Assembly (NCBI GenBank): GCA_964187785.1
Contig: OZ076409.1
Location: 40,550,001-40,614,000, forward strand
Direction: 5' to 3'
Source: Amphiscolops sp. MND2022
Taxonomy: Eukaryota
DNA length: 64,000 nt
Positions 3,001-52,294 of this stretch are shown here, one piece after another. Position 1 is the stretch's first letter. Each line of letters starts with the position of its first letter. The position numbers were made by a program, and so were the translations under genes. Under the pieces are notes generated by a model. The model saw only the letters and a list, made by a program, of their open reading frames with translations. It was not told the origin of the DNA and did not search any database.

Positions 3001-3095
3001 TACTATTTCAAGGGAGGTAGACTTTGACTATGACTTATTTGAAACAAGAAAAGATGATTGGCCGGACACAGCCAAGCGTCTGCCGAATGACGCAA
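1..3095 (+). pseudogene. pol: Gypsy pol (RT, RNase H, integrase) with stops and frameshifts
   Basis: ORF pieces 41-457 (KLRLLVDLR, KLDCSQAYH), 491-841 (YVDDI), 979-1494 (RNase H, ADYLSR), 1679-2413 (H-x4/5-H...CEIC zinc site, QIDLL, TDKG) and 2468-3127. Confidence 0.95.
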
Positions 3096-6000
3096 CCAGG
3101 GATCACTGGATATATTACCAGAGCTAAATTGCTGTTCACGCTCTTTAAACTGGTCCACGGAAGCTTCGCTCGTAGAGTGGGCAATTCCATTGAGCACCAT
3201 TGTCAAGTAAGACTGTGCGGGTAAGAGGACATCAGTAAGGCGACAACGTGGACTCTGGGCATCGACATCTTGGAACTTGATAGCTGGCAACAAAGCTGTC
3301 TCCTCACTTAAGCATAAGCAGCTCAGTCGAAATAGACGACACAAATGAGGCCGATCCTGAAGCTCAGGCATTGAAATCAATAAATCAACCATGTCAGTGA
3401 AACCGTCGGTGGAACCCTTTAAAGCAGAATGAGTATGCTGGAAGTGGTCAACAAACTCCATATACTCATCTCGGCAATCCGCCTCAGAGAAATCTTCAAG
3501 CCAACCGCGTAGTTGGAAACTACGGACTAACGGGACGAAACAATGAGTGGCCTGCTCCATAGAATTGCCCAGTAATATGTGAGGATCGAATGTGGCCATC
3601 CCCTTGACAATGTCGGCATTGAGGCTGATATGGTTCAAAAACTCTTCAAGTGAGAAAACTAGATAACTGCATGCCCGACTAGCAAATTCATCTTAATAGG
3701 TAGCAGCGAGTTCAGTTTTAGCAGCCTCTGTGGTCTTCTGCTCACCCAGTTCCCTCTCGGCCTTAGCTACGGCGGCAGCGTCCAGATCTGTTCTAAGATT
3801 GAGGCGAATCAAGAAATCCTCAGTGGACAACTGACGATGAGTTGCAGTTTGTAACTCTCCCAATCGGGTCCAATCTCCCTCTCGAGGACCGAATTTTGGA
3901 AGCAGGGAACGGTAACCAAGCTTTCTCACGTATTGGTTGAGTTGGCCGTAAGTGAAGAAACCAAAATCGCATCGGCCTTGCAAGCTCCGCTTGAAACACT
4001 TGTTGTCTAAAGACAGAAAAGAATCAGGTAATGCAATTTCAACCAAGAGTAAACACCTTGAGGAGACCTTAAAGGTTTACGGAAGAAAAGAATATGTGGG
4101 TGAAAGATTATAGAATACTAACAATCAGTGACGATCCGCCCAAAGAAGTCTAGCTTGCAAACGAAGAAGTCGTCTGTGATCATGAGCCACTCAAGTCTTT
4201 GGGGCTGTAAAATCAAAACAAAACGTTAGCCTCTTGGATAACCCACCATCAATTACACTAATCGGCAGACAAAGTTGGAACACTTGCATTGTTCTTGGTT
4301 CCTTCCATGCCATAAGTTGGGGCGTGTTTCATCAAGTAGTTTAAGATAGGTTCCCACTGACAGATGATCTCAGAACAAATTGTCGGGATAGCCTTAACTG
4401 GAAGGTCACTTGAGTCGAGAGCCTGGAAGAAAACGGAAAATGTACATACTCATTGGCTCCAGCCATCTTGGATAACATAGTAATACTACCTTAGACAACT
4501 CAGGAGTATGGACGATCCATGGTTCACAATGGCAGCCATTGAGGAACGCAACCAGGTACTTCAATTGAGTGTAAAAGTCAATGCGTACGAAGACACTCCC
4601 CTCTTTACGATGCATCAAGGTAGTCAGTGAGAGCGAGTTGAATCGAAATGGGTACTCGATACCCTTCTTTAACAAGGTGGAATTTTCAAGAGAACGAAGG
4701 GTAGCAAAGGAACAACCAGACAGACAGACGCCCTGTGGCCCAGTTGAGAAAGAAGAGAGAACCTTGGTGATACTCTGTAACTGGCCTACTGCTAAGTCTG
4801 TGGAAGAAGGGTAACGGGTTAACTGACACTTGGTCAAAAGAATCGTTCTTCCAGACTCGGAGTGACATCACACTGAAATTGCCCTTGTACTCAAATTCCA
4901 GTGAGTAAAAGCCACTGGTATTCACGTGCTGTCCAATGTCCTCAAGGCCACGAAGAAAGACGTGGTGGAAGATAGTCTGAAAAGAACACAAAAAAGGTGC
5001 TAGGTTTAGAATTTGACTCTAAAGCGGAAAGGCAAACTACTGAATGATACGTACTGTAAGTGCACTCGACCCCCAGTCCAAGTCTGAGAAGAGATCCTGG
5101 TGGTTCTTGAAGGCACCGACTTCGGTCCACAGGGATTGAAGCACGGAGATGTTGCCGCAGTGTCGAGTAAAGAATACCAACAGGGAAATCTGGGTGCCGA
5201 GACGCACATCAGCCCGGGTAGTGTTACCCCCCATTCTCTCCAGGTATTCGTCATAGAATGGATACTTGGGTCCGATGTTGACGAGCACAGTAGTTTCAAA
5301 GAGGGGCTCTTCTTTCTCCAACTCCATTGCTGTTAAAATATGGCCGTCTTTGGCCCCAACTTCATGTTTGGTGACTCCTGTTATTCTGTCTTTTTTTCCT
5401 AGGTGCTCATATCTCCAGCGCTGATCCTTACGGAGATGAGCCTCCGACTGGTTTGGCCTGATGATTTCGCGTGCTCTTTTGGAGAATATCGACACGTTGC
5501 TCTTACAAATTTGACAATGAAATTTGTATTTATTGTGTACAGGGTCTAGTGGTCCGGTGACGAAGATCCTCGTCCACTGAATGCCCTTGAAATACGCAGG
5601 CTTCGTTACCTTTCCAGGCTTGCTAATCATCCTGCGTCTTTTACGGGGCGGACTTCGGCCAGATGGAGTAGCTGTCGGTGAGGCCCTAATGGTTGATAAA
5701 GGAGCATAATCTCCTTCACTGAATCCTGAACTTGGAATCCCGAATTGAGTTGGACTGAGGGTAGTCTCATTAGGGTCATCAGGGCCCTGAGCGTCCATCA
5801 CTCCGAGGCAATGTGAGTGCTGGGACTCACATCGAAAGTAGCAATTTCTTCATCGAAGGGTAAAGCGCCACTTGTATAACCATCTGTGGAATACCCCTCA
5901 GTGTCTGTCCCCCCGTCTGAACTATCAGACATGCGTTGAGAAGCAGATGTCGTTCGCTGTACAGTCTTTCGGAAATGACTGAGTCTCTGTATTCCCCTGT

Positions 6001-6839
6001 GAGCTGCATGCATCAATAAGGCTTTCGTACCATGCACGGAAGACTGGACTGTTTCTGAAGAAATATTGCGCAAGATGGCATGAAGTTGGGGTTCAGTAAA
6101 TGCAACGGTAGGATGTCCCATAGGAATGGTGACTGGTTCGGCCTTGGCAAAGAACTTACGCAGGATGGCCCGCCCATTAGCTGAAAGCTGTTCTGGAATT
6201 TTTGGTCCAGCGTAGGAAGTACTGGTTTGAGGCCCAACTGGAAGTCCTTCAGCGGTGAAATTTCCCTCATCCTGCGTAGTGAGATTTTCAGACCCAACGA
6301 TACTGGAAGCTGCTCGATTAGGGACTCCTATCACCCCTTCACTGTCAATCAGGTCCTCCACTTCGCTTGTGTCAGTTGCAAAGAAGTCAGAATGGACTGT
6401 ATCCCGTGCAGGTCTATCAGTGGATTCAAGGACATTCGTTGGATCATCACCCTTAGTTTGGGTCTGTGGAATTAAATCGCCCTCAATTGCGTCCGACACA
6501 GAGGCCTTAACATGGGCGTCCTGTTGAAGAACTTCCTGACCAGAGTTCTCAGGGGCATCTAGGAAGGAGACGTCTAAGTTGGCGTCAACTGCTCCAAGGT
6601 TGTGCAAAGGTGCGTTCAGCATATGCAGTAAGGCTCTCTTCTGTGGCACCACTTGAAGAGGAGAACTTGGAGAGTGGACGTGCCTCAGTAGGAGGATTGG
6701 TTTGTTCCACTATTGCCGTGTCTGTCCGTTCGTCAGGGTTTCTGTCTGGCAAGATGTTAGCCGTATCCTGTGCTTCAGTTGTCATTCCTAAATAGTAAAA
6801 GGCAAAGTCAAGCGGAAAGCTTCCTGAATATGAATCCAT
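3095..6839 (-). pseudogene. Antisense 5-exon accessory gene of element 1 (Zn-finger, hAT-transposase-like protein). Exons 6839-5055, 4976-4490, 4422-4288, 4204-4123, 4006-~3095
   Basis: Donors GTACGT, GTAGTA, GCAAGT, GTTAGT with pyrimidine-rich AG acceptors. The spliced translation aligns exon by exon with the element 2 gene. Zn finger CQIC...H present. Contains a few frameshifts and stops. Confidence 0.85.
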
Positions 6840-8043: not shown

Positions 8044-8865
8044 ATGTCTGACGTTTCTGAGACATTCCCTATGGACTTCCTGGGCGCTGCTCAATCTGAG
8101 GGAGCTCCTGCAAAAATATACATTTCAAGCGATGAAGATGAAAGGATGGATTCCTTCGACGGTGACTCAGTGGACGACGTCTACGTCTCATCTGAAGAAG
8201 AAACGCTGGATATCGAAATTATAGCGAGATGCATAGAGAGACAAATGACCGAACCCAGTAAAAGTCCCAACTCTGAGACATCAGGTACCCAGGCTAGGTG
8301 CGGGACACCCAAGCCCGATTTGCCGCCCTTCCCTACGTTTACACAACAGTTTTTCAACCTGGGTATGGGCAACGGACCTATTGGACGGGATGACCGAGTT
8401 AGACCCAGTCATCCCATTAATATTTGCAGAGACCTACGACCTAATATTGATACCCCAATGCCGCCACCGCCAGAAGATAGGGGACCAGCCTACGAGCAAG
8501 ATATACCGACTTGCTTTTACTCGGCGAGCTCTACTTCAGTCGAGACTGTGGCAAATCACTTCAATGATATGACAGTGTCTGGAAACGCTGGCCTGTTGGG
8601 CTGCTCAGACTGCGTAGTTTGTGGGAAGCCAGATCAACAAATACAGGATGAAGCAGTCAATGACTTTCTCAACAAAACAGTTGTTCCAGGCGAGACGTTA
8701 GCTGAAACCGAGAGAAGAAAGAGAGCTTTCCTAGACGGTATGGCTGCTGGCACGTTTTGACTCATGCCAGGGGGAGTGTCGCAGGCGGCCGCCTGCGATG
8801 GTAAGTGGTACACAGTCGCATATAGTTATTGCAGGGCCCTACCCGGAACAATTCCACTAGATTGA
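8044..8865 (+). pseudogene. ORF3, acidic accessory protein that crosses the PPT into the 3' LTR (one in-frame TGA at 8758-8760)
   Basis: The 238-aa ORF continues in frame as LMPGGVSQAAACDG...PGTIPLD*. SQAAACDG and PGT are conserved, with synonymous changes, at the start of element 2's LTR. Confidence 0.7.
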
Positions 8866-10031
8866 GGAAATACAAGCAGTTGGGCCAAGAAGTCCAAGGC
8901 AGAAATAATTAAAACTTTTACGATAAAACTGGTTTGTAATACTGGTTTGTGTTATTATAGCATGTAATTGCATTCCGGTGGTAGCTATATTACTTGTAAG
9001 GTATATTTTAAAACATGTAAAAATAATTAGATGTGCTGTGAATTGGACACAAGGCGTACAGGCAGAGGAAACGCGTTCAGAGTGTTTCCTCTCCTGTCGC
9101 CGTGGACAAGCAGTCCAAATTAAGTTCAACCAATCACATTTCATCATTCAACTGAGCACTGCCTTCTTTGTCATAGAAGTGCAGTTGTCCCTTAAGGGCG
9201 AACGAGGCGCTGTAACGCCTTTGATGTGCCAATAGGTCATTACGTCATGTAACCCGCAAACAAGTGATGCTATTTTTAGATTAGTAATTATCTATTTTTA
9301 GAACATGACAGTTATTTTTTCGATAGTCATGCAGTCTATCATATATATACCCGGGACTCTTGGACCGGGGGACACAATTTGATGATATATGCAGCCTATC
9401 AAATGGTTTTATTCTTTTTGCAAGCCTAAAGATAATTAATTCTTACCCCTTGCAATTGTCTCTTATGCCTTCTACAAGGAAACAAAAGGCAAAAGCTAGA
9501 AAGTCAAGGGAAGTGGACATGATGTCTGACTTTGAAAATATGGACGTAATGATAGGAAATGAAAACACTAATCCTATTGAACGCGAACTTTCAAACATGA
9601 TCGGAAATGGGGTAAATGGTCAAGACATTGAGTCCAATCCCCAATCTTCGAGGTATGAAACACATGAAAATGAATTTGGGCATTATGCTCATGAAAATGC
9701 AATTCCTTGCAAGACAGGGTTCAAGAGACGCTGGAAACCTTTACTAGCGAGTTCAACATGAGACTTTCGCAAGAAATGGATTCAATGATGTCATTAATGC
9801 ATAGTCAGATAAACAGGGCGATTAGTGCAGCGATAACTGAGAGAGTAATTCCAGAGATTTAAATTATAGTGAGTTCGATTTCATCCTCCGGGAATCGAGA
9901 CACTGAGGCCAGTTCGTCTCCCAATAGCCAGGAAAACGCTGAAATGAACAATGGGTTTAGAAACAAAATTGCGAAAAAGGACTCACAGTCTACTGGTGAC
10001 CTTAGAACACCTAGAGACAGCAGTCCTTACA
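8777..10031 (+). repeat. 3' LTR of element 1 (~1.26 kb), containing the ORF3 C-terminus and the gag N-terminus (ATG 9465)
   Basis: PPT immediately upstream and TG...CA ends. Homology to element 2 starts at TGTCGCAGG. The gag-like MPSTRKQKAKARKS...GDLRTPRDSSPY stops where element 2's LTR ends. Confidence 0.8.
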
Positions 10032-27999: not shown

Positions 28000-28592
28000 C
28001 TGCAGATCTTTTGTTTTGCTGACTTCTGCGATTTTTCTTTGAAGGTTTTTTCTTTTTGAGATCTTCTAGTTTTCAAAAGAGCTGATAATTGATATTGATA
28101 ACGCCAGAGTGTTATGAGAATGTTCAACTCACTCTGCGACTAGGATGAAGGCTTGAAAAATCCTTCAGTACTGAAATTTTTCTTTTTCCGTGGAGATAAG
28201 AGATGTTTCTGTACGTGCAAAACTAAAATTCCAGTATTTGTAAGTTCCTCGTAAATATTAGGCAATCCCGCTCGCTGACAGTAGACAATTGCGGTTATAT
28301 GATCTTTCAATTGTAAAAGAGTTGTACAGAGATTAGAAACAGTGTTCGCTCGAAAATTATTGCTTCTGTGAGCGTTCAACGAATTATTAATAATATCGTG
28401 CCAAATGAGAAATTTTTTGTGGTGTAAGTATCCTTGCGTGCACAGAAATTTCAAGTTTTTCAGATTGCTTTTCGCGCGAGGGTTTAAAGACAATCCGGAA
28501 ATTGCAGTGAAGTGCTTTCTCAAGTCGACTTTATTGGACTGACAATATTCAAAAAGTCTTTTCAGAGAGCTGGCTCCAACAATTCGAACCAT
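28000..28592 (-). pseudogene. Extra ORF upstream of BEL gag, SGNH-hydrolase-like motif pattern
   Basis: 150-aa ORF with IVGASSL, ISGLSL and IWHDIINNS, plus a frameshifted KDFSSLHPS. It lies between the PBS and gag. Confidence 0.45.
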
Positions 28593-28713
28593 AATAAGAA
28601 GGAAAACTTAGCTGAGAAGTCTTTGGTGTCTCGGCAGGGGAGACGTCTTCCTCGGCGATGGATGGTGGGTGATCCTCAGATCCTCGGTTCGAAATTTGTG
28701 CGGCACCAAAATA

Positions 28714-28922
28714 TGTTTATACAATCACTTTGATTGTCTTTTTGAAGTTGGGAATTGCGGTGAAAGCAATTTGATGATCAGTGATGATCAGTCAATTTCA
28801 ATTCAAAACAAAAGTATGATTCAGAAGTAGTTCAAAGTATTCATGCATTAACAATAATATTTGTCAATGAAATCAAAATAAAGTCAAAGTAGAAAAGGAA
28901 AGAGTCAAGTTTGATAGTACCA
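28714..28922 (-). repeat. BEL/Pao 5' LTR
   Basis: Near-identical to 23331-23529, with a TGATGATCAG duplication. Confidence 0.93.
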
Positions 28923-30505: not shown

Positions 30506-32279
30506 TGTCGCAGGCTGCCGCCTGTGATGGCACACTGATAACGACAACGGCAACAAACCAAGAAATGGTACCCGGAACTCTACCTACATTTTGAGCAAGT
30601 ACACTGTTGAACTTTAAAAACTCGCATTTAGCAATAATATTTGTTTGCAAACCGTTATATTTGTCAATATGTTGCAGTTTATATTAGTCTGTTAATATCA
30701 AGATTTGGGATTAGCCAAATCGATTCGTTGATGTAGTATACTGAGAAGTGAAATTGAAATGCGAAGTTGAATTGGTGCATTAGCAAACAATAAGCAAGTT
30801 AATCGCGAGAAAGAAACGTGTTCAAGTGCGAAAACGTCCTTTCTAGGCGATGTGACTTGCTGCGTATTTGTCAACCAATCAGATCGTTTCTTTTGATGTA
30901 TAGGTGCTTTTATGCTATAATGGCCGAATAAGGCCTTTTGACTTAATGGAGCTTACGTTCACTAGCACTTTGGTCAAATGGCCTGTTCCGGCCAATTCAT
31001 GCATCATAGTACTTTGTTGTTTAATTAGACTGGTATTTATTCGGAGCTGGTAAATCCATAATTTTAAACTAAATAGAAGCATTTGTAACCCTTTGATACC
31101 CAAATAACCCCAACCAAAATATAATGGACAATTAGGGCCATTTTACCATGTCCCCTTAATGTGCCGTTTATTTTATGGTTTTGAACCCATTCCGGCCTTG
31201 ACATGAAAATATACCTTCACACATATTTGAGTTGTATTAAATTCCTACATGCAATAATACATTCCATTCTTGATGTGGTCAGAAGTAGTCTTGTGTCGGC
31301 ACGTGCCTTCACTTCACTCCGTTGTAAAATATGTAAGCGGAGGTTTTTGTTGACACTTCGATACAATTGCCTTAGTCGGTAATTTGTTTGTAGCTGCTGT
31401 TTTATCAGATGACTTTCAGATGCCATTTCTTAAATGTCCCCTAAAATATGTAGGTGTTGGGACCTTTTTGCTATGAAGTTGTAAAACAGTTGATTCCATT
31501 TTTCTCAACTAGTCATGTAAAAATTGTGATTGTCATTCTCCGAGCAGTACAAAAAGTACCACCCTGCTGGGGAGAGTGATTAAATCAGTTGTTCTGGTAC
31601 TAGTAAAGATACTCAAAATACTCAAAATACAGTTACTCTGATAGTTTTCCGGTTTCAATAATTGAAATTTTCAACCCGGTTCTGTCGTAATGCCTACCAC
31701 AAGGAAACAAAAGAAAGCGAGAAAGTCAAAAAGTTTAGAAATGTTATTTGACATTGAAAGGCTTGATATCATGTTGGGTGAAAATCATTCCAATAGAACC
31801 GAAAGGGACGGAAGCCTTGATAGTACTTCAGTTAGAAGGCATGAAAGTGTTATCATTAATAACTTAGATGAAGGGGAGGAAAACCCCTACTCTGATCATA
31901 GAAATTCCAATGTAAAGTCAAATGCCAATTACGGCCAAAACTCAGCGGACATGAATTCTCAGGCTGAAATTAACAGGTTGTCGAGTGAGTTAAACTCTAG
32001 AATATCTAGAGAAATGGATGAGATGATGAGTAGCGTTAGTTCCCAAATCCAAAGAGCCATAAATGAGGCTATAAGCACTCAAGTCTTGCCTCAAATTCAA
32101 AATGTTATAATGGCCGGACCGGGACGCGAGACTAGAAGAAGATGGGAAACTTCTGTTGAGAGACCGGAAATTAACTCCGAAGTTCAGCCCAATTCCAACG
32201 TGAAAATTATTCTTGGAAATGAACGAGCAATGTGGTGACCACCGCACCGGAGAGTTCACTAACCGAAGTGTTCATGACA
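30506..32279 (+). repeat. 5' LTR of element 2 (~1.77 kb)
   Basis: Starts TGTCGCAGG like element 1's LTR and ends CATGACA (4-bp terminal inverted repeat). Followed by the PBS-like TTGTGACAGGAG, probably a mutated TGG. Confidence 0.75.
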
Positions 32280-33393
32280 TTGTGACAGGAGAAAACGAAT
32301 ATTCAAATCCAGTTCCTGAGTTTCTCACAGGACGTATCCCATCAAGTCATTCCGATCAATCCAATGAGGACATCAACCTTGACACGACGATCCCAGCGCA
32401 CGAGAGAGTCACTACAGCTGCAGATCCTGACCCCATTTCTAGATTGGCCGATGTCTTGACTACTATGCAGAATAGACCAACAGCCCAACAACTCACCATA
32501 CGCCCGGTCAATTCCAAAACCATGACCTTTGACGGCAAAAGTGAGAAGTTTGAGTTGTTCGAAGATCGTTTCCACACTATGATCAAGATGCAGCCAGAAA
32601 TGACCGAACAAATGATAATTAACCATTTTCATTCACTATTAAGGAAAAACGCTCTCCAGACGTTCAGGAATATCAATTCGACAAACAAACAAACTCTTGA
32701 AGACGTACTAGTCATCTTCCGACAAAAATACGTCAAACCTGAGTCACAGGTGACTGCCAAGCATAAATGGCACCGTCTGGTCTTTAATCCCAATACGATG
32801 AAGCTGCCCGATTTCTTTGAAGAATCAAATCAAGGGGCAGAAAAAGCGTCTGGAGACCATGCGCAAAAATGATTAACAGTTTGCTTTACGCAAAACTGCC
32901 ACCGGAATTAAAACAGTCCGTCAACATGACCAGATTAGAAAACGGCTCATACGATGAACTAGTTGCTCATTTGGAAAGAGAACTATAGCTCAACGCCCTG
33001 GAGGAGTCAGACGACCTACCGATGGCAACAATGACTTCCTCATCTGCTAAGCCCAAAACTCCTCTGTCCACTGGGCAACTGTCTGACATCACCTGCAATT
33101 ACTGCAAGGAAAAGGGCCACATGGTCAAGGACTGTGAAAAGAAAAAAGAGAAAGATGCCCAACAAGGCAAAGAGACTCAGGAGAAAATATACCCTGAGTG
33201 TGGGACTTGTGGCAAAAAGAATCATCCGGAGGAGAGTTGTTGGCAAGGCGCTGGTGCGCATCTTAAACCCAAATGCACCAGGTCTGACGACTCAAATGAC
33301 AATAAGCCCAATTCAAAGGCTCAGAAGCCTCAGAACGAACAGACATCTTCAAGCTCTCAATCCTCATCTTCCAACGATGAGTCAAAAAACTAA
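31690..33393 (+). pseudogene. gag: Gypsy gag (frameshifted), starting inside the LTR
   Basis: MPTTRKQKKARKS start, FDGKSEKFELFED capsid-like segment, knuckles CNYCKEKGHMVKDC and CGTCGKKNHPEESC. Confidence 0.9.
33384..33390 (+). promoter_or_regulatory. Putative -1 ribosomal frameshift heptamer A AAA AAC at the gag/pol junction
   Basis: X XXY YYZ heptamer in the gag frame directly before the gag TAA. The -1 frame is open (KLTSPRLQYNELISVRQY...). Confidence 0.65.
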
Positions 33394-36300
33394 CTTCGCC
33401 ACGACTCCAATATAACGAACTAATATCCGTCCGCCAATATATCAGGTCGGATCCTCCAACAAAAACCTTTCATCAATACAACAGCAGTTGATGGGTTATC
33501 CCTCTGTTGTCTGGCAGCAACAGATGGACAAAGCTATCATCATTACCTACAACAATACCCATTTATTCCAAAAACCAATTCCGGTTTGGGACCCTGACTA
33601 TACAACCATCTTCACTACCCGATTCAGGCCCATTCCCCTGATCGACGATTACAATCCAACATACATCGACCCAGACTATGGCAGAGATCCCTATTGGGAC
33701 ACTTAGATTTATAATCAGGATCTATTGCAATTTCAGTTTGTTCTAGATGACATTGAACACTACAACAAAACAGTCCATGAGAACCCTCCAATTATCCACA
33801 ACCAGAAAACACGAGCACTAATTGAAAACTGGCAAATGAACGATGGTACAAACCACCCAGTGATCCCTAACCCCTTGGGGATCGAGAATCTTGAAAATTG
33901 TGCTGAATCAATACCACAATCGCTTTTAGACGGGAAACAATTCCAAAATGTACTCATTACCAAAGATGGTGAACCAGATTGTATACCCCTGTCAACCAAC
34001 ATTAACCGCAAGTGCAAGAAACGCATGCTTTACTTCCCAATGGACCTTGGGGAATTGACCATTGATAGACTCATAGACACTGGGGCGCTGTCCAGCGCAA
34101 TTCCTGAAATGGACCTCCGGAAAATCCGCCTTCTATCTCCGCAATCTGTCATCCGGGAAGGTCCGCCTCCTATCTTCCAAATCATGGTCGCTAATGGGCA
34201 ACTGGAAACTCCCAAGAGTACCATAGAGCTCAAATTCGAAGTTGGTGACATTGAGTTCCATGAAATTTTCATAGTAATGGAACATTTGACAGGACCGATT
34301 ATTTGACTAATGTTCCTTCAGAGAAATCATACAGTCCTGGACATGAGACAAGGAACTTGAATTTCCCGTTCTTTTCAATGCAGCTCAAAACAGCTGATAA
34401 TAAATATTCAAATGTGCTAGAACCAATACTCAACCCCACTGAGATAAACATTCCTTGGCATTTTACAACCAAGTCACCTCCTACATGAAGAATGGGATAT
34501 AACATTTTGCCCAGCCTTGCTCACCCTAAATGACGTCAGTATGTTGATACCAATGAACAATTTCACAGACCACCCTTACAAACTCAAAAAAAACTTCACA
34601 TTGCCAATTTTTCTGTCATGACGCCGGAACAAATGAAATACGTCAAACCAATAGACCCGGCATCAACATGGCTTTTCCTTCAACAAGACCAAGAGCAAGA
34701 GGGACATTATGTCAGCAGCCTCATCTAATAAAAATCCGCAAAACCAAGAAAATTACTGGTTTCCAACCCCAGAAAACCCAGGCAACCCAGAAGAACATAC
34801 ACCAATACAGAAAAGGACCTTACGAGATTTACAAGCCTTACAGGACCTGGAGACCCTTGATCCTACAGAAAATCCAGAATCTCGGGCGAAGTTCCTAGAA
34901 CATTTTGACTGGAAAGATTTCACCCTGACTCCTGAAGACAAGGTGAAAATAGAAGACTTATTAGTGAAATTCCATGACATCTTCGCCCGACACAGATTCG
35001 ACATAGGCATGAATGAGGAATATAAGGTAAAACTTACACCTAAAGACGATTCCCCAGCCTATAGCCAAAGCCTCCCAGCACCAATTAACCTAAGGGAGGA
35101 CATATTAGTCGAACTAGCAATGCTTAATAAATATGGAATAATAACGACTCTACCATTTTCGAAAGACGCCAGTCCAATCTTTGCTCAGAAGAACCCGAAT
35201 GGGAAACTGCGACCCCTGGTTGATTTGAGAAAAGTCAACAACCTAATCTCCGACGATTATATCAATAATAATCACCCAGTCAGTACGCTAGTCAACGCTG
35301 CCAATATATGGCAGGCAAGAAACTCTTTTGCAAATTGGACTGTTCACAAGCGTATCATTGCCTCCAGATGGCTGACCAACGTTCAATCGAAATGTTAGCA
35401 TTCAACTTTGCAAGCCGCACATTTGCCTACCTACGTTTGGCACAGGGCCTTAGTCGGTCACTGTCCGCATTTTTAAGTTTCATGAGGGAATACCTTGACA
35501 AAGTCATAAAAGTGGATCAGTGTGCCCAGTACGTGGACGATATCGGCATCGCCGCCAACGATGCTGATCACCTCATAGCTTGGAAACCTGAGAGCAACGT
35601 TCAAATGCATTCAGGAAGCTGGCCTCAAGTTGACCCACTTGGAGTCAAATTAGTTATACCACAAATGTCACTTCGGTGCAAAAGAAATTGATTTTCTTGG
35701 ACGAACAATTACCCCACAAGGCGTCAAACCCCAGAAACAGAATGTAAAAAACTTTCTGGAAAAAACCAAATTCCCGAAGTCGAAAAAAGTTTTACAACGC
35801 TATTTGGGATTCTTGAACTACTACAGAAATTATGTCCCGAGACTTTCAGAACGCCTTGCCCCATTCTACAAGATGCTGAAAGGTGACGAAAAGGTCATAG
35901 TATCGAAAGAATTAGTGCAACAAATTGAAAAAATCAGTAAAGCACTCGACAAATGTTGCGATTTGGCCCTCCAACAACCTATCCCAAACAAGCAAATTGC
36001 ACTACTGACTGATGCATGTTTTGGTGCAGCAGGGTATGCGGTCTTAATGGAATACGATCCAAGTCAGAAATTTACGTCACTCAGAAAGTCGTATGCTCAG
36101 GTGGCATATGGATCAAAAACCTTCACTCCGGGACAGATCAAGATGTCAATTTATGCCAAAAAATTTCTTGCAATTTACTTTGCATTTAAAGAATTTGGGC
36201 ATATCTTCTGAGGTGCCCCAAAGCCGGTCATCATCCTTACAGACAACAAAACTGCCACGCGATTTTTTCAAACGAAAATAATACCCCCAGCGCTGTGGAA

Positions 36301-38544
36301 TGCTTGTGATTATGTGATTCAGTTCAATTTTGTCATAGTGCACATCCCGCGGGCACAAAATACAGCTGCCGACTATCTGTCCCGTTTGGAAGCGGACCCG
36401 AAGGACAAATTAGTCATGAAGATCCGCGAAGATGTACAAACGCTACCAATCGAAATAAACGTCCAATCCGCAGGGGTATCACAAGAGGAACAAATCTTCT
36501 ACACAAATGATGACGATGAGACAGAGGAACAATATTGGGCAAGGAAAGAAGCAATCAGGAAAAATCCAGCTATTGATGAGCCCACTGTTACAATACAAAC
36601 TCTGTCATTAAATCTGGTCGAGCAACAAAGTGACATACAAGTCCGATTAAGGAACACCAACCAGATCGTTGTCGAGCAATCCAAAGATGAAGTGCTACAA
36701 CAATTGAAGGCAAAACTCCTTCATGAGGAGTATTCAGAGAACCTACTGCAGCAGGATGCTCGATACAGACATTATGCAAGCAATCTGGAACGAATTGTAC
36801 CTAAGGATGAAATCCTGACGAGGCAATACTTTGACGAAACAGGGAACGTTAAATACTATCGAATTTTGCTCCTGCAACACTTACTCCAGGAATTGCTTCA
36901 GTCCCTTCATGGGACAGCACATAAACATCCTAGTATCTCAAAAATGTTGCAGGAAATTCGACAGAGGTTTTACTACCCTAGCATGGCTAAACACGTCAAA
37001 AAGTGGGTAGAAGGGTGCGAACAATGTGCCAGAGACAAAAGAGTCCCTAACGCAACAATTACACCTGAACTGCTAGATTTGCCCGAATGGGACCTTGGAC
37101 CTGAAGATGCCATGCAGATCGACCTATTGCCGAATCTTCCCCCAAGTGGAGGCTATGAAAACGTCCTAACAGCAATTGACGTATTTTCCAAATATCTGTT
37201 CGCATATCCCCTTACGGACGCAACAGCGATCAATGTAGCAAAAGCGCTCATTGACATCATGACCAAGCATGCATACTTACCGACAACACTTACTTACTGA
37301 CAAAGGTACTGCATTCACTTCTACAATTATTGCGGAAATTACGCAATGTTTGGGCATAACACTCAAATGTGCAACAACAAAACATCCGCAAACAATTGGG
37401 AAATTAGAGCCGACACATGCCTCATTGAAAACAAACCTCAAAATAGCATGCGGAGAATACCGCCGACAATGGCACAAATACTTACCATTAGCAGTACTAA
37501 ATCATAATACTAGTTACCATGCCAGCATCGGTTGTGAACCGACGAGAGTATTTCATGGACGGTTTCCATACAATATCTTGGATCACAAGCTAGGAAACAA
37601 TCCAAACGAGCAGATTAATCCTACAACCGAATTTGCAGAAGGATTACAAAACCGGACAAAAATCTTGATTGACAAAACAAAGCAGAATATTATGCAGTCG
37701 TATATCAAGTACAAAGAGTATTACGACCGCAAAGCAAAAGCCGCCCCATTAAAGGAGAATGATTACTGCTTTGTCTTACAGCCGAAAGCAGATCATGAAG
37801 AATCAAAATTCCAATCCGCGAGTACCGTTGGGTTGGACCATAAATAGTCCAGAAAGTTTTGCCCAATGAAAATTATATAATACGACGGATCAATACAAAC
37901 AAAACTCAAATATTGCATCGGATTTGCCTCAAAAAGTTTATCCCCAATCAACCGCTCGAGGACAATTTCCGAGAACAGCGTTTACAGCCTGATGAAGAAA
38001 TTGTTATTCCGCAAGATGACTTATACATCATAACGTGGGAGACAGATTTTGGCGCGCAGCTAGTTACACGAGAACACGATCCTATTCCGACTAGCTTGCC
38101 GAATGGCGAACAGCCGAATGCGGCAGAACCGATCCAAAGTGACTTAGATGGGAATGAAGCGGATTACATAATCACGAGAGACGAATTCAATCAAGCCGAC
38201 CGTGCGTCGCATAACCAGAATGAAAGATTGAAAGATGACGTCACTAAAAGAAGTGAAGCTACTAGAAATGAAGAATCTGATTGGCCGAATCCGGCCGTTT
38301 ACCCAAAAATCAAGAAAAACCTTTGCCGGATACGGCAGAAAGACTGAAAAACGATGCAAACTTTTCAGAAGGAAATTCAACGATTGAAAATGATGCAAAA
38401 AATTCTCCAAACAGGGGCGATGATATTATCGTGCCCAAAATATCGCAAGATGATGTTAGAAACGAAAATCTGAGTCCTAGAGGCGGGAGATATAATCTCA
38501 GACCTAATCCTAATCCAAACTACTCAGAAGACTTCAGATACTAA
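33390..38544 (+). pseudogene. pol: Gypsy pol (protease, RT, RNase H, integrase), decayed
   Basis: LIDTGA protease, YVDDI, LLTDACF, HGTAHKH...CEQC, QIDLL, TDKG, and the C-terminal GRYNLRPNP motif. Confidence 0.95.
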
Positions 38545-38690: not shown

Positions 38691-41600
38691 CTAGGTGTAC
38701 ACAGATACATATGTACAATTCGTTTTTAGTAGTGCTGGGCTGGGGAGATACAGTAACTGAAGAGGCGGAGGGCCGAGAAGCCCTTCGTTCCATCTTTCTT
38801 CAGCGACAGAACTGGCATCTCCAGAATCAATTTGGACAGAGACCTTCTCTGGAACAGATTTCGCAATACGGCAGGAAACCAACAAGGACTTGTAAATCTT
38901 CGAGCGCCCAAAGGTGTCAACATATGTCCAAGGATCATACTCTTCGGCAAAAGCGGAACGCCCAAAGGAGGAAGAGAGTAGAGAAAAGCTAGCTAAGTTG
39001 TCATCATTACTGCAGAAGGCCACAGAATCACGAACATTGGCCAGATAACTTTGACAGGGGAGAATGACGTCGGTAAAGCGATTCTGACGCCCCGCGGTAG
39101 TAACTGCACCAAGCGTAACGCCAGGAAAGACTGGACTCACGGAAGTTGCACACAAACAGCACAGCTTGAACAAGTGGAACAGGTGTGCTCGGTCCTGCAA
39201 GAATTCAAGACCAACCAGGAACTCTATCAGATCTGAGGAGGTGCTGGTCAGATCGAAATTGGGGCCATAGGAAGTCCGTAAATGGTCCAGTAGCTGCATG
39301 TACTGGTCCCGGCACAAAGACTCATTGGCGCTGGAGACCCAAGAGCGGAGAGCAAAGGTACTATACAGCATGTCAAAATGCTTCAGAGCAACGTCCATCG
39401 GCCTTTTAAACATGATGAATGGGTCGAAGGCAGCTAACCCTTTCAATATATTGCTCGTCAGCCCAACTCGTTTCAAGATCTCATTGATGAGAAACTGTAC
39501 ATATAGCTGGCTGTCCTTGACGAAGGCTGTCTTTACAGTTTCTGCGGTGGCCTGTATTGCTGGACGCTCGGACTTTTTTCCGAAGTGGATGCATCTGCTC
39601 GAGCCTTGCTTGCAGTCCCCACACGGTTAGACAACTTGAGCTTGACCAGGTACTCATCTACAGGCAAAAAGGTCCCTTCACTGGTATGGAACCGGAGGAG
39701 CATGAACCAGTCATTCTCTAGGGGAACTGTGTCGGGGGTGTAGACCCGGGAGCATAGTAAAATCACGAATCGGCTAACCTCCGCGCAGAGGCAGAATGAG
39801 GCGTCACGCCTGTATTGGAGATTCACAGTGAATCTGGTGACTTATAGAAACACAAAACAGTGTCAAATTACGGAATGTAACCTAATACCATCTCCCTACC
39901 GAAATATACATACAGTCACTGACAAGTTTGCGAAAGAATTCCAGTTTGACGGCAAAGAACTCGTCAAAAATCAAGGACCACTCGAAGCTCTGCACCTGGA
40001 ACAAAAGTCACATTTACTTCGGCACATAAAGTCTGAGGGACAGGCAGGGACTAGAGAAACCCATTTATGACTGAACCTGCCTAACTGAAATGATACAAAT
40101 GGTTTGATGGGAGAATAACCCTATTACGAGATCCTTGACCTTCTTGAAGCGGAGCGTGGGCCGTCAAGTAACGCTGCACAGACTTCCACTCGTCTAGCAA
40201 TTCTTGACAGACAATAGGGAGAGTTTTGACGTCGAGTTGGCAGGTGGTGTTAGCCTATAAATCCACAGGGTCGAATGAATTTCAAATAGTGGATTCTGAG
40301 ACCCACTCCCCCCTTTTTTTTACCATTAGAACCACATGAAAAAGGGAATACACCATTAGATTACTTACCCTAGTGAGTTCTGGATGACGCATCACCCAAT
40401 CTTCAATGAGGGAACCACCCAGCGAGACCATCAGGGCTTGCAACACTGAGAAGAAGTCTATGTGACCAAAGACAGAATAACTCGTCTTCTGCATGAGCCT
40501 TGCTAGTGACAGTTGCTCAAAACGAAAGCAACTCTGAACTCCTTGGGCGAAATACTCGGACTGGTCAATTGTTTTGGCAAATTCAACCAGACATCCCGAG
40601 AATGCGACCATATCGGGCCGTGTGGAGACTGCTGACAGGAATCGAGCAAGTGATCCCAGTTCCCCGGTCGCATCAGTCGCCGGGAGAGAACTTCGGCAGA
40701 CGTAGACTCTACAAAGCTCTAGGTTCTTCCAGAATTTGACTAACATGTATTTGTTGGTGCCAACTGTCTCGAACTCGACTGAGAAACACTGTTGGGAGGA
40801 CACTTGCTCAGCAATGTCATGTAGCGCACAAACGAAGAAATGTTAAAATATGGCCTGAAATGGAACCTAAACCTCAGTACCTGGTGAAGTTTAGAAGAAA
40901 TAGTTTGGCTTAGAAAGCATTACTTACAGTGAGTCGTTCTTCCTCCCAATCGAAATCAGTGACAGTGGCTTGATGATTGGTGAACGATCCCATCCGAGAC
41001 AGAGAATAGGGAGAGTTTTGACGTCGAGTTGGCAGGTGGTGTTAGCCTATAAATCCACAGGGTCGACTGAATTTCAAATAGTGGATTCTGAGACCCACTC
41101 CCCCCTTTTTTACCATTAGAAACACATGAAAAAGGGAATACACCATTAGATTACATACCCTAGTGAGTTCTGGATGACGCATCACCCAATATTCAATGAG
41201 GGAACTACCCAGCGAGACCATCAGGGCTTGCAACACTGTGAAGAAGTCTATGTGACCAAAGACAGAATAACTCGTCTTGTGCATGAGCCTTGCTAGTGAT
41301 AGTTGCTCAAAACGAAAGCAACTCTGAACTCCTTGGGCGAAATACTCGAACATTGGCCAGATAACTTTGACAGGGGAGAATGACGTCGGTAAAGCGATTC
41401 TGACGCCCCGTGGTAGTAACTGCACCAAACGTAACGCCAGGAAAGACTGGACTCAGGGAAGTTGCACACAAACAGCACAGCTTGAGTAAGTAGAACAGGT
41501 GTGCTCGGTCCTGCAAGAATTCAAGACCAACCAGGAAATCTATCAGATCTGAGGAGGTGCTGGTCAGATCGAAATTGGGGCCATAGGAAGTCCGTAAATG

Positions 41601-44600
41601 GTCCAGTAGCTGCATGTACTGGTCCCGGCACAGAGACTCATTGGCGCTGGGGACCCAAGAGCGGAGAGCAAAGGTACTATACAGCATGTCAAAATGCTTC
41701 ACAGCAACGTCCATCGGCCTTTTAAACATGATGAATGGGTCGAAGGCAGCTAACACTTTCACTATATTGCTCGTCAACCCAACTCAATTCAAGATCTCTT
41801 TGATGAGAAACTGTACATATAGCTGGCTGTCCTTGACGAAGGCTGTCTTTACAGTTTCTGCGGTGGCCTGTATGGCTGGACGCTCGGACTTTTTTCCGAA
41901 GTGGATGCCCTCTGCTCGAGCCTTGCTTGCAGTCCCCACACGGTTAGACAACTTGAGCCTGACCAGGTACTCATCTTCAGGCAAAAAGGTCCCTTCACTG
42001 GTCTGGAACCGGAGGAGCATGAACCAGGCATTCTCTAGGGGAACTGTGTTGGGGGTGTAGACCCGGGAGCATAGTAAACTCACGAATCGGCTAACCTCCG
42101 CGCAGAGGTAGAATGAGGCGTCACGCCTGTATTGGAGATTCACAGTGAATCTGGTAACTTATAGAAACACAAAACAGTGTCAAAATACGGAATGTAACCT
42201 AATACCATCTCCCTACCGAAATATACTTACAGTCACTGACAAGTTTGCGAAAGAATTCCAGTTTGACGGCAAAGAACTCGTCAAAAATCAAGGACCACTC
42301 GAAGCTCTGCACCTGGAACAAAAGTCACATTTACTTCGGCACATAAAGTCTGAGGGACGGGCAGGGACTAGAGAAACCCATTTATGACTGAACCTGCCTA
42401 ACTGAAATAATACAAATGGTTTGATGGGAGACTAACCCTATTACGAGATCCTTGACCTTCTTGAAGCGGAGCGTGGGCCGTCAAGTAACGCTGCACAGAC
42501 TTCCACTCGTCTAGCAATTCTTGACAGAGAATAGGGAGAGTTTTGACGTCGAGTTGGCAGGTGGTGTTAGCCTATAAATCCACAGGGTCGAATGAATTTC
42601 AAATAGTGGATTCTGAGATCCACTCCCCCCTTTTTTTTACCATTAGAACCACATGAAAAAGGGAATACACCATTAGATTACTTACCCTAGTGAGTTCTGG
42701 ATGACGCATCACCCAATCTTCAATGAGGGAACCACCCAGCGAGACCATCAGGGCTTGCAACACTGAGAAGAAGTCTCTGTGACCAAAGACAGAATAACTC
42801 GTCTTCTGCATGAGCCTTGCTAGTGACAGTTGCTCAAAACGAAAGCAACTCCGAACTCCTTGGGCGAAATACTCGGACTGGTCAATTGTTTTGGCAAATT
42901 CAACCAGACATCCCGAGAATGCGACCATATCGGGCCGTGTGGAGACTGCTGACAGGAATCGAGCAAGTGATCCCAGTTCCCCGGTCGCATCAGTCGCCGG
43001 GAGAGAACTTCGGCAGACGTAGACTCTACAAAGCTCTAGGTTCTTCCAGAATTTGACTAACATGTATTTGTTGGTGCCAACTGTCTCGAACTCGACTGAG
43101 AAACACTGTTGGGAGGACACTTGCTCAGCAATGTCATGTATCGCACAAACGAAGAAATGTTGAAATATGGCCTGAAATGGAACCTAAACCTCAGTACCTG
43201 GTGAAGTTTAGAAGAAATAGTTTGGCTTAGAAAGCATTACTTACAGTGAGTCGTTCTTCCTCCCAATCGAAATCAGTGACAGTGGCTTGATGATTGGTGA
43301 ACGATCCCATCCGAGACCACAGATTCCTCAGCACCATCAGGTCTCCTTGAGTCTTTGCAAAATCTCCCACGAGACAGAGTTGAGTTTTGGCTCTAGATTC
43401 CGTTGTGACTAGTGCTGTGGTGGAACCCTTGATGTAGTCATCATAAAAAGGGAGTCTTTCTCCAATGTCCACCAGCTCCTCATTGATGAAATGGGGAAGT
43501 TCCTTTGCAAGTTCCATCTTAGTTAGGATCCTCCCGTTGGCTCCTCGAACCCGATGTTGCACCTTACCCGTGATGGGGTCTGTACTTCGCAGGTGCTCAT
43601 ATCGCCAACGCTGGTCGCGACGTAGGTGTCGCTGGGTACGGTGATGCCTGAGAATTTCATATGGGGCTTTGGACTTGATGGAAAAGTTTTTTTTGCAGAT
43701 GTGGCACCAGACCATCAAGGGGTTGTGGACGGGATCAGCGGGTCCCGAGATGAAAGATCTGGTCCAACCTGTTTTCGAGAAGAACTCCTCTCTCATGGGA
43801 ACTCCTCGTCTCGTAAGCCTTCGGTCACTTTTCCGTTTCTTGAACTTAGAGGCGGTACGCGTAATGGGCCGAGCTTGCTCCCTCAACTCCTGTAGAGTAG
43901 TGTCTTGGCTACTGAATTCTGACACGTCGGGCTCGTTCTGCTGTTGGCTGAAGGGAGTTCGGGTTTCGTCTGGATTTTTCGGAGGAACAGTGGTTTTCTT
44001 GAAGGTTATCAAATCCATCTCTGTCGCGCTATCACTCTCCTCTTAGTATGAAGACTCCCCAGTGCCCTCTGAGGACGAGTCAGGTTGACGTGCCGCAGCT
44101 GTTGCTCCTTCTTCGTCGGATTCCGTCTCACTCGAGCCGCTAGGAGACCTTCGCATAGGAGTCTGACATCGGCCCTTGGAGTGGAAATGAGCGGTGCGGG
44201 AAGGTGCAACGGTTGGGAGAACCCCGAACAGCATCTATGACCATCCGCTCCATGGTGGAAAATGACCGATTAAGGGTTTCTTCTGTCGAAACCCTGAGGA
44301 GGTGGTATATCAGGGGCTCAGTGAAGGCAACGGTGGAGTGTCCCACGGGGAGACGTATGGGAGCGGCTTCGTCGAAGTACTCCTTCAGAATTGCCCTGCT
44401 TCGACCAGAAAGGTCTGAAAATCTACTTTGGGTAGGCTGTGGATTGGGAGCGGAATCCTTGCTGGTTCCATGGATTAACACCTCGGAGCTCGTCTCATCC
44501 CCGCCTTCAGTCCCTGACTCAGTGTAGAAGGGATTAAAGCCATATAGGCAACAGGGTTGATCTGACTGGCCTCTTCAATTGCCTTTTCTTCATCACTCTG

Positions 44601-45240
44601 CCCTCCTAAGAAATGGACCTGAGGAGAATCTCCAGGCAAACCTGGCGCGTCACAAATCGATGAGGCGTTCTCGTCGTCCGTTCTGGAATGTACTCCACTG
44701 ATGTTGGCCGATTTAGGGTCAGTTCTGTCCCGCAACTCAGGTAGTTGAGACTCCGACGTGATGATGACGTGTAGTGCCGACTCTAAGGCTGACAAATCAG
44801 CTTGGCAAGTTTCTTCACCTCCCTCAGACGAAATTGAGGTACTTGACCTCCGGATTTCGGGGACATCAGGCGCCACTGGAGTAGCTTCTTCGGCAGGGGG
44901 TACATTGCCATTCGGACCTGAAGTTGAAGTGCCAACTTGCTGTGGAGCGTGCTCTTGCTGCTGCTCTATTTTTCAAACCATAGCTTCCGCATATGCGGTA
45001 ACGTCGGTACTGCTACCCTGGCTGTTAGCTGGACTGTCTTTTTCAATGATTGCTGGTGAATGAACAGGAAGCCGATCAGTACTCTCTACTTGAAGCCCTA
45101 TAGGTTTCGAAAGACGAACCTCCAGAAGTGGCATGGACATTGGCTTGGGACGTGGTTGGTTCAGCAGCGTTCTTTTTCGGAAGATTTTCTAAACGAATGG
45201 GAATGAAACTTAGCGGTGTACTTCCTTGATATGAATCCAT
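38691..45240 (-). pseudogene. Antisense 5-exon accessory gene of element 2 (Zn-finger, hAT-transposase-like). Exons 45240-43245, 43171-42686, 42571-42437, 42312-42231 and 42157 onward; exon 5 is completed in the duplicate copy 39840-~38691
   Basis: Donors GTAAGT, GTAAGT, GTTAGT, GTAAGT; acceptors TTTCAG, TTATAG, TTCCAG, TATAAG. CHIC...HHRTQRH finger. The start MDSYQGSTPL matches element 1's MDSYSGSFPL. Confidence 0.85.
39031..43317. repeat. Internal tandem duplication with partial triplication: 39031-41000, 40998-41348, 41347-43317
   Basis: Near-identical ~1.97-kb copies offset by ~2317 bp. The middle 350 bp is a third copy of the intron-2 region. Confidence 0.92.
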
Positions 45241-46297
45241 TTTACCGCGATTAGAAACCTTCCGGAAGTGTTTGACAAATTCGAATGAAACGTGTTATCA
45301 GGTTTTTAGTGATGGAAACAGGAAGTATATTTTGAACAAATTTGACCTTGATCAAGTTGAATGAGTTCTAAAATGGAAATCCAAACCAACCTGAGTCAGT
45401 AGACATGTCACTGAAGAATTGATCTGCTACATGTTGGTCCAAGTTGGGACGATTACTGGAAGTAGGGGAATTAACCGAATCCGGCAGGAAAGGAAAGGAA
45501 CACTCTGACAGGAAAATGGGTCTGCAACTGAGATGAGGATGGAGAGAAACAAGTGCCTATGGAGCAAATCCAAGTAAAAGAAACAATTGGAATATAAATG
45601 GAATTGAATTGGAATTAAAATTGGGTAAAGAAATTAGAAAAATGGAGTTCGTGGCTGAAGAAGATTACCAGACTAATATTGTGCGGCTATTTACACATTT
45701 AAATTGTGCTTGGAGTCTGCCAGCGACATGTACAAAGTCTTTCATTATTTACAGCTTACTTAGTTACTGGCTGGTTATGTCCGTTTGCCCTGTTTCGTAT
45801 CACCATTTCGTTCAGTTACCATAATTACCCTTAGTTAGAATTTTCGCCATTTTGGATTATTCAGATTTATTATTTTCGCCATCTTTATCATTTATTTTTC
45901 AATTCACCAAAGCTTGATTCTGATTGGTCGAAGCCATTTTGAGAAAGATTTGTTGTCTCGTGCCGTTAATTACCTTCACGCGGCTCACTAATTACCCACT
46001 TGAAATGATGAAAGTTGATATTTACAACTCAAGCGTTGTTCACACTTCTTATAGTGATGATATTGATGAGGGGTAAATACTAAGTTATCAAAGGATGCCG
46101 ACTGGTTATGAAATTCCATTCAGGAAAGTTTACGACGGATCAGGATGATCAACCGAAATTTTAACCGCTAAATTGGCAACTTCGGGGGAAAAAACCTGAC
46201 TCGGCTAAGTTCTCGGATCAGACAATTTCATTCTACCCCAAATTTCATTTCAATTCTGTTGCCCCTATCATTTTCAAAAATAGCGAAAAAAGTCATC
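45241..46297. promoter_or_regulatory. Putative bidirectional internal promoter (element 2)
   Basis: Divergent ATGs at 45240(-) and 46298(+). Shares ordered motifs with 6840-8043. Confidence 0.5.
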
Positions 46298-46349
46298 ATG
46301 AGTAAATACAGCCTCGCGAGAAAACTCTTTGGCCTAGAAGAATCTGACA

Positions 46350-48811: not shown

Positions 48812-49250
48812 ACCCTGATTGCAACTGCTTGAACTTTTTACAAGTTTTTGTAGGCTACCAAGCTAATTTTTCATGATTTTATAAAATTCTCAAGGAAACG
48901 TCCATGCATAAAAACTTCACTAATGCAACCTAATTCCGAGCTGCGAAGTTTTGCAGATTTCATCAAGACGCCGTTCTAATTTTGAATGCAACTGAGACCT
49001 TCATCAATTTTACCGCGGTTTCAATGCAAATAATTTTCAGTCACATTATAAGTTTTTAAGTAGCGTCATATTGAGCGTGCTATTTGACTAATGGTGTTTA
49101 CATAAGGTAGTTGCTTGAGAAACTCACGCGTGAAAACAAAGTGATCGCGGTGGTGAAGAAGGTGAAATGTTTTCAGTTTTAATTCAAACAGTGAAAGTTG
49201 CATAGTAATCCTACAAAATGTTGCCATGCCTGGTTCCTGAATATTCCATG
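48812..49250 (+). repeat. Interspersed repeat family E
   Basis: AACTGCTTGAACTTTT...CTGAGACCT...CAGTCACATTAT...ACGCGTGAAAACAAAGTGATCGCGG is shared with 58411-59400. Confidence 0.7.
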
Positions 49251-49264
49251 TTTTTTAAAAAAAA

Positions 49265-49686
49265 ATTAGCCGGCATTTTTTGAAGGTGCCTGTAAAACTT
49301 CGCGGCAACTTTGACTAGCGAATCCTTGATTTGTTTGGATTTTTTCAGCGTTGTACGACTTTGGGTTCGAAATTTTTCATTTCATAAATTGTTCCCCATT
49401 TCGGTTTGTCCATGTTTTCAACGTCCAAAAGGACATTTTTCAAGCCTAGAGGATATAATTTTTGAGTTTTTCGGCCATGTGAGACTTCTTTTCGTAAACT
49501 TTTTCTGTTCAGTCTGATTGTTTTTTGACATTTTTATCGAAAGAAAATCGTTTTTCGAGACCGTAGGTCACCCCGTCTGATATTTTTGCAACACCGGGAT
49601 TTATGAAAACTTCCCAAAAGCCACCCTGAGCATTTGCGCCATTTTGAACCTTAAGCGGGGCGTCGATAATAAATGTTCCCGTCTTG
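49265..49686 (+). mobile_element. Diverged HINE family A copy
   Basis: TTAGCCGGCA start and GGCGTCGAT...GTTCCCGTCTTG end. Confidence 0.45.
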
Positions 49687-51941: not shown

Positions 51942-52294
51942 CTAAAACACGCCATAATGTTTTCACCAAAGTCTGACCAGTTGTGAAGCTGATATGGAAC
52001 AATGTCAGACATTGTTATGTTAAATCAATATGAACTTTCAGTTATTATGTTGAATTAATATGAACTTTCAACACTTTTGACATCGCAAATATTTATTGCG
52101 ATTTGAAGTTTTTTGTCTGCGAAATCGATTGTTGTTAGCATTTTGGTAACATAGTTCGTCCTTACAAACTATGGTACCAAAAGGATAACGACAATCGATT
52201 TCGCTGACGAAAAATTTTAAATCGCAATAAATTTTTTTATATTCAGTCGGCACAAAAATCCTAGGAGCAAAACTTTTTGCAATTTATGATCAGA

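Follow-up and report, generated by a model that had tools for sequence, protein, structure and literature searches.

We report an analysis of a 64,000-nucleotide stretch of the genome of Amphiscolops sp. MND2022 (GenBank assembly GCA_964187785.1, contig OZ076409.1, positions 40,550,001 to 40,614,000 of the forward strand; host genome 1.07 Gb), hereafter the window, within which all coordinates are given. Two related long terminal repeat (LTR) retrotransposons lie there, and the second, element 2, is a Ty3/Gypsy element that carries a large gene in the opposite orientation between pol and the 3' LTR. This antisense gene comprises five exons separated by GT-AG introns, with exon lengths summing to about 1,290 codons. 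A preliminary description, made from the letters alone, had read part of it (41347..44018) as a hAT transposase stripped of its catalytic residues and repurposed by an RNA transposon. Our results indicate that the gene is under strong purifying selection (ratio of nonsynonymous to synonymous substitution, dN/dS, of 0.02-0.08) and that it would work like the known antisense accessory open reading frames (ORFs) of LTR elements, is not an active hAT transposon, and probably descends from a hAT transposase.

Each search of the genome with a single exon returned between 4176 and 7806 first-look candidates and scored 106-150 of them (one exon search gave 6823 candidate places, 150 of them scored); these figures are not copy numbers. 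Forty-eight elements were fetched in sets of 8, 20, 10 and 10, picked for minus-strand hits, mostly open frames and diversity, and the sample is biased to young copies with the antisense gene because it was selected by that gene. All 48 share a layout of LTR, gag, pol, antisense gene, a sense-strand frame termed ORF X, and LTR, at about 14.4 kb per unit, and reverse transcriptase (RT) and integrase (IN) domains lie upstream on the opposite strand in 47 of them, the exception (L034) being rearranged. The carrier has the features of Ty3/Gypsy elements: gag and then pol in the order protease (PR), RT, RNase H (RH) and IN, paired LTRs of 1.6-1.95 kb that are 95-100% identical with TG...CA ends, a TGG-starting candidate primer-binding site (PBS), and short target site duplications (TSDs), which are exact 5-bp repeats in 14 of the 16 copies whose two outer ends are visible and have one mismatch in the other two. 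With Gypsy pol, paired LTRs and 5-bp TSDs, the host of the antisense gene is an RNA rather than a DNA transposon, as had been supposed. An antisense coding gene is found at the same site and in the same orientation in elements of every sampled clade, where it is conserved like the core genes.

In the window the gene is larger than the range first described, starting at 45240, with its last exon cut at 41347 by a duplication junction (Table 1). The segments that had been listed in hAT order were all found on the minus strand in the order given, as exons of one antisense gene: the finger (43709-43626), CFSVEFE (43105), VKFW (43057), VAFSGC (42925), FRFEQLSL (42844), ELLDEWKSVQRYL (42520), DEFFAVKLEFF (42282) and NLQ (about 42140), with element 1 counterparts at 5522-3312. 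One placement had to be corrected, as LQDRAHLFHLFKLCCLC lies at 39200-39150, in an internal duplicate outside the described range, and the copy within the range (41516) reads LQDRAHLFYLLKLCCLC. The underlying internal duplication is 1971 bp long (39031-41000 = 41347-43317, 98%). The window copy of element 2 is decayed, partly duplicated, and runs into an N gap at 46350, where its 3' LTR is lost.

Table 1. Features of the two retrotransposons in the 64,000-nucleotide window.
Feature	Position	Strand	Remarks
5' LTR of element 2	30506..32279	+	TG...CA; ends defined from paired LTRs of related copies; contains first ~200 codons of gag frame; PBS-like sequence next, at 32280
gag	31666..33390	+	several broken frames; CCHC knuckle (zf-CCHC E 5e-4, just under cut-off)
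pol	33707..38544	+	Gypsy order PR-RT-RH-IN; several broken frames; 1738-aa frame in an intact relative
Internal duplicate (39031-41000) spanning part of exon 1 through exon 5	38691..41000	-	runs on to exon-5 stop; frame break near 39.6 kb
Third copy, 356 bp, of exon 2-3 border	40998..41351		
Antisense exon 5, 5' part	41347..42157	-	in-frame stop 41784-41786; cut where the duplication joins; acceptor placed approximately
Antisense exon 4 (27 aa plus one base)	42231..42312	-	
Antisense exon 3 (45 aa)	42437..42571	-	likely hAT TRW motif region, TRW absent; register by eye
Antisense exon 2 (162 aa)	42686..43171	-	predicted RNase H-like core; aligns to Hermes 153-264
Antisense exon 1	43245..45240	-	~480-aa acidic Ser/Thr-rich N-terminal part, basic patch, C2H2 finger, linker; stops and frame breaks in window copy, 675-686-aa open frames in young copies
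C-x2-C-x16-H-x5-H finger	43626..43709	-	motif read in 44/48 elements
ORF X start (second extra frame)	46172..46349	+	cut by N gap; remainder of element missing from window
Element 1 (clade B) antisense gene, decayed	3006..6839	-	element 1 is a more distant relative, at 1-10 kb
Element 1 3' LTR	8777..10031	+	right end approximate

The antisense gene is not a product of chance, since its exons recur in thousands of candidate places, its splice sites are conserved, and its dN/dS lies far below 1. Three young copies have the same five exons, with introns at matching codon positions and divergent intron sequence. A GT stands at the end of exon 2 in 54/54 and 29/29 locus matches and at the end of exon 1 in 63/63 and 25/25 (counts that include overlapping loci), while exon 2 is flanked by AG and GT in all 33 readable elements of the 48. 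The length of intron 1 (69-140 nt) is divisible by three in only 7 of 25 cases, and the reading frame therefore depends on splicing. Selection was estimated by pairwise Nei-Gojobori comparison of natural copies from 38 elements, using pairs with dS of 0.1-1.5, which are not independent of one another. The finger region had a median dN/dS of 0.019 (6 usable pairs among 276), exon 2 one of 0.079 (14 among 300; upper quartile 0.42), exon 5 likewise 0.079 (15 among 276) and the N-terminal part 0.47 (27 among 325), compared with 0.041 for RT (212 among 435) and 0.014 for IN. In most antisense-gene pairs synonymous sites are saturated, yet the protein remains 56-78% identical within clade A, and it changes about ten-fold faster than RT. 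Its N-terminal ~480 residues are acidic and Ser/Thr-rich, with a basic patch at their end, before the finger (read in 4 copies); basic patches stand on both sides of the folded part. As a separate observation, one young subfamily (L139-L159) occupies 21 places at 99-100% identity, and in 20 of these intron 1 is stop-free and in frame, giving an 847-codon frame. The relatives found by search are all ENA proteins without names, ten distant ones among them. For P0316 there was no close copy among the scored genome places, the best reaching 26-31%.

The ancestry of the encoded protein was approached mainly through predicted folds, with exon 2 folded from 80 natural rows and exon 5 from 63. The exon-2 model has the order helix-b1b2b3-helix-b4-helix with antiparallel-type strands (pLDDT, or predicted local distance difference test, 73; predicted TM score, pTM, 0.64), and is RNase H-like. 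A Foldseek search of the PDB with this model placed the hAT transposase Hermes at rank 1 and in 5 of the top 10 rows (E 0.023, probability 0.91-0.97), and VIA laid model residues 1-109 on Hermes 153-264 over 101 residues at 2.7 A (Z 6.4-6.8). In a viral library, the highest TMq among the matches listed belonged to a hAT-domain protein (0.41). The exon-5 model (pLDDT 65) aligned over 156 residues with Hermes 376-590, the longest alignment of the 50 listed rows. ESM embeddings placed exon 5 next to an unnamed cluster and then, at 0.90, to GTF2IRD2/FAM200 and Dimer_Tnp_hAT clusters, with PF05699 on 53% of members; the neighbours of the finger plus exon 2 were DUF659, DUF4371 and ZBED1 RNase-like clusters at 0.78-0.82. 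The exon-2 and exon-5 halves thus match collinear Hermes ranges, and exons 3-4 fit the intervening gap by length. Taken together, these four individually weak but order-consistent structural and ESM signals make a hAT ancestry of the antisense protein probable.

A number of results weigh against this conclusion. Each fold score falls below the significance mark of its tool, the Foldseek value not reaching 0.001 or better, and in a wide VIA search Hermes (Z 6.2) was tied with actin-like, pantothenate kinase and Argonaute chains. The exon-5 match to Hermes has a Z of 4.9 and a root mean square deviation of 6.2 at rank 14 of 48,161, and a Foldseek search with the exon-5 model gave no match. The ESM recognition of exon 5 is below its mark (1856 vs 2300), and the scores for the finger plus exon 2 are all under 0.9. 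At the level of sequence, Pfam gave no hAT match for the window exons, 34 exon-5 relatives or the finger pieces, and a match to Dimer_Tnp_hAT or zf-BED, suggested as a check, was therefore not obtained; the finger gave only weak C2H2 hits (E 0.001-0.01). A PDB profile search with the exon-5 alignment returned no match at E 10, and comparison by hhalign with hAT profiles of Ac type that were built from this genome (7 and 43 rows) gave a probability under 1%, the hAT profile used being of Ac type only and recovering Hermes at 6e-70. An ungapped motif-block scan found its best offsets in the wrong places and no better than shuffles or wrong-exon controls, which makes the motif match originally made by eye indistinguishable from chance. 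The hAT resemblance as first proposed consequently stands on folds and embeddings from both halves in the right order, and not on motifs in the sequence. Ordinary hAT transposases also occur in this genome (L169-L178), as 600-700-aa open frames with canonical motifs.

The preliminary description had further held that both catalytic Asp residues, the CxxH motif and the final Glu appeared replaced. The key residues of Hermes are D180, D248, R318, W319 and E572 (PMC6027215). The corresponding registers in the antisense protein were derived from the strand pattern and by-eye alignment rather than from a residue-level structural alignment, which is a further point against the proposed descent. In the exon-2 superposition D180 falls near model residues 27-29. 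Of 33 elements, 31 have Glu and 2 have Asp at residue 27, while 29 have Glu and 4 have Ala at residue 29, and an acidic residue is therefore kept on beta1 in all 33 readable elements, whichever of the two is the register. At the D248 register on beta4 the same elements have Ser (29) or Thr (4). No Cys-x-x-His follows model residue 109, after whose position we take the Hermes CxxH to begin, and no conserved Cys or His stands at that register; TRW is likewise absent from the 8 copies of exon 3 that were read. Across clades, and in the 42 of 48 elements where it was read, exon 5 shows no gaps between its last long helix and an R-x-R-like motif, and the E572 register, aligned by eye, holds a hydrophobic residue. 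The second Asp, the CxxH, the Trp and the final Glu thus appear to be replaced and an intact DDE (Asp-Asp-Glu) triad is unlikely, while the acidic residue on beta1 makes the statement that both catalytic Asp are replaced too strong.

The surroundings of the gene also differ from those of a DNA transposon. No terminal inverted repeats (TIRs) were found around it, the longest exact inverted match being 9-12 nt in 34 elements, and an 8-bp TSD accompanied only 1 of 431 inverted near-matches in 33 elements. The number of near-matches exceeded the 218 of a mononucleotide shuffle, which is a weak control, and 60% of the matches are AT-rich. With neither an intact DDE triad nor flanking TIRs, an ordinary active hAT DNA transposon, the outcome that would have spoken against the original proposal, is not what lies here.

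Phylogenetic comparison of 27 elements resolved the same three deep groups in RT and exon-2 trees. The exon-2 tree, whose branches are far longer, recovers them strongly and the RT tree weakly. These shared groups fit a single old capture followed by descent with the element, in trees that contain no outgroup or donor. Within clade A (L032-L047, L079-L118) the elements are modular: median protein identity is 96-98% for RT and IN against 56% for exon 5, and the types of antisense gene, ORF X, U3 and gag are found variously combined. The antisense gene and the spacer upstream of it travel together (rho 0.33-0.74), with almost no linkage of the gene to gag, RT, IN or U3 (rho 0.04-0.22). One antisense type is paired with three U3 types and one U3 type with two antisense types. 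Such free pairing speaks against the variable part of U3 as the target, and hence against a U3-specific regulator, and points instead to a family-wide target or a host factor.

On balance we lean towards the view that the antisense protein is hAT-derived and serves as a likely non-cutting nuclear DNA- or chromatin-binding helper, which would sustain expression of the element or protect it from silencing. The grounds for this view are the conserved finger, the transposase body, the basic patches, the acidic region, fast divergence under purifying selection, and the analogy with VANC proteins and host-domesticated hAT proteins. A possible course of events would begin in the common ancestor of all clades, where a hAT element would have been inserted behind pol in reverse orientation and would then have lost its TIRs. 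As the copied RNA is the sense strand, antisense introns would persist, and antisense transcription may start from the ~1-kb spacer shared with ORF X. The finger and the dead transposase body might bind a site common to the family, for example the conserved LTR ends, and the ~480-aa acidic region might recruit or decoy host factors. In its boldest form, which we put forward tentatively, a class I element would have domesticated a class II transposase, and a whole Gypsy radiation in one genome would rely on a hAT protein that is spliced and catalytically dead, binds the family's conserved LTR ends or chromatin, and diversifies as an exchangeable module while racing against silencing by the host.

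A protein of the same hAT origin could instead act in transposition itself, by binding complementary DNA ends or tethering integrase to chosen chromatin. Transposases bind element ends, which counts in this direction, and so do the LTR termini, which are conserved in all clades where U3 is not, the ability of the antisense gene to combine with any U3 type, the absence of a chromodomain hit in the integrase, and the nuclear import suggested for plant antisense ORFs in one review (PMC7264820). The gene is, however, unlinked to integrase type (rho 0.18-0.20), and a separate antisense transcription unit with a long acidic region would better suit a trans-acting regulator, so that we regard this role as unlikely.

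Somewhat less likely still is that the gene is real and selected but took its RNase H-like domain from a transposase of the MULE (Mutator-like element) type, another DDE transposase or a host gene, the hAT look being generic. The failure to find hAT matches in sequence and the Z-scores tied with unrelated RNase H-like folds, with an ISCth4 transposase at 5.8 against the exon-2 model, speak for such an origin. Against it, hAT is indicated by each of two exons that were folded separately and by each of two independent ESM queries, with collinear Hermes ranges, and Hermes covers the leading helix and sheet of exon 2 almost gap-free (101/109).

We consider it improbable that the protein has retained a non-canonical metal or nucleic-acid site, as a nuclease or a binder of RNA/DNA hybrids acting, for example, against small-RNA silencing. 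The invariably acidic residue on beta1 would fit such a site, as would the Asp of the fixed-spacing exon-5 motif, seen in 42/48 by a pattern that required Asp but invariant in 63/63 rows of alignment A1, and Argonaute and RNase H domains score near Hermes. Yet Ser or Thr occupies the position of the second carboxylate in 33/33, the E572 register is hydrophobic, and the exon-5 Asp lies by register at the start of a helix of the dimerisation block, where it is probably structural. Finally, an ordinary hAT DNA transposon nested in the Gypsy element and passively carried is scarcely credible: hAT elements are common in this genome (at least 150 scored Dimer_Tnp_hAT matches over the cut-off), but the gene has a fixed site and orientation in all clades, it has no TIR and its near-matches almost no 8-bp TSD, and selection continues on it without a DDE triad.

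A helper encoded behind pol has parallels elsewhere. Antisense ORFs between pol and the 3' LTR are known from the plant Gypsy elements Retand (TRP28/PF04195), maize Grande (gene23) and rice RIRE2 (PMC11963269, PMC7264820), and they resemble the present gene in position, in antisense orientation, in their presence in nearly all copies and in a proposed nuclear DNA-binding role. An upstream promoter of its own has been shown for Grande and would be expected here. These plant ORFs have no traced origin, in contrast to the five exons, about 1,290 codons and predicted full hAT layout described above; TRP28 is reported from flowering plants only (PMC11963269, PMC7264820), and PF04195 gave no match in our Pfam searches of the window exons, exon-5 relatives and finger pieces. 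Outside plants, brtn of the Boty-like Gypsy elements of Botrytis is likewise a conserved antisense gene behind pol (PMC7264820). That 2020 review treats where such antisense genes come from and what they do as unknown, and considers origin by insertion of a transposable element unsupported, as no similarity to other such elements had been seen (PMC7264820).

Like Hermes (PDB 2bw3, 4d1q, 8edg, 8sjd), the antisense protein has an N-terminal finger of C2H2 type and is predicted to have, in the same order, an RNase H-like core (matching 153-264) and a helical part (weakly matching 376-590). The two are only 7-11% identical, the D248, W319 and E572 registers appear replaced, the CxxH is absent, and the present gene has an extra ~480-aa acidic N-terminus, lacks TIRs and spreads by retrotransposition. 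The host-domesticated hAT genes DAYSLEEPER, ZBED, GTF2IRD2 and FAM200 are similarly hAT scaffolds under purifying selection without mobility of their own; in this case, however, the domesticating party would be another mobile element, and there are very many fast-diverging gene copies. The VANC anti-silencing proteins of Mu-like DNA transposons offer a second analogy, being encoded by fast-evolving transposon accessory genes with higher dN/dS than the core genes, as is the N-terminal part here (PMC13547354). Unlike the present gene they are carried by DNA transposons and have a proposed origin from host MAIN-like proteins, and no homology between the two was seen. Sunflower Athila elements have an additional ORF whose domain bears the name transposase (PF03078; PMC11728184), and LTR elements occasionally capture ORFs after pol (PMC6431247). 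In the open PMC and bioRxiv literature, a scope outside which subscription journals and Repbase reports fall, we found no report of a hAT-derived gene in an LTR element.

If correct, the hAT descent of this gene would be the first traced origin of an antisense accessory gene of an LTR retrotransposon from another transposon class. The family would then be a candidate case of origin through insertion of a transposable element and would extend transposase domestication from host genomes to another mobile element. Its many young copies, together with protein change about ten-fold faster than in RT, would make it a tractable system for the study of accessory-gene function.

Other features of the carrier elements were also noted. 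The gag frame begins about 200 codons inside the 5' LTR (window 31666-32279; L036:1018-2760) and crosses the LTR end and the PBS, and its N-terminal part within the LTR is under selection (dN/dS 0.14), so that each 3' LTR also carries the N-terminal frame of gag. ORF X, on the sense strand between the antisense start and the 3' LTR, encodes 270-350 aa with one CxxC, ends inside U3, has a dN/dS of 0.14 and belongs to no Pfam family (window 46172-46349 and 7963-8757; L037:3376-4338). Clade A elements (L081-L117) have no purine tract before the 3' LTR, and those of other clades (L211-L295) have a short G-rich tract. In L036, L038, L213 and L283, tandem elements apparently share one LTR, with a period of about 14.1-14.6 kb.

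Elsewhere in the window, 23331-28922 holds the decayed remains of a BEL/Pao-like LTR element on the minus strand, with repeats of ~200 bp and a match to DUF5641; elements of this kind are found mainly in animals. A dispersed AT-rich repeat family with internal sub-repeats occurs at 11340-11973, 19366-19726, 48813-49276 and 55075-59416, and palindromic inverted repeats, or ones resembling miniature inverted-repeat transposable elements, lie at 52087-52236, 60507-61211 and 62228-62464.

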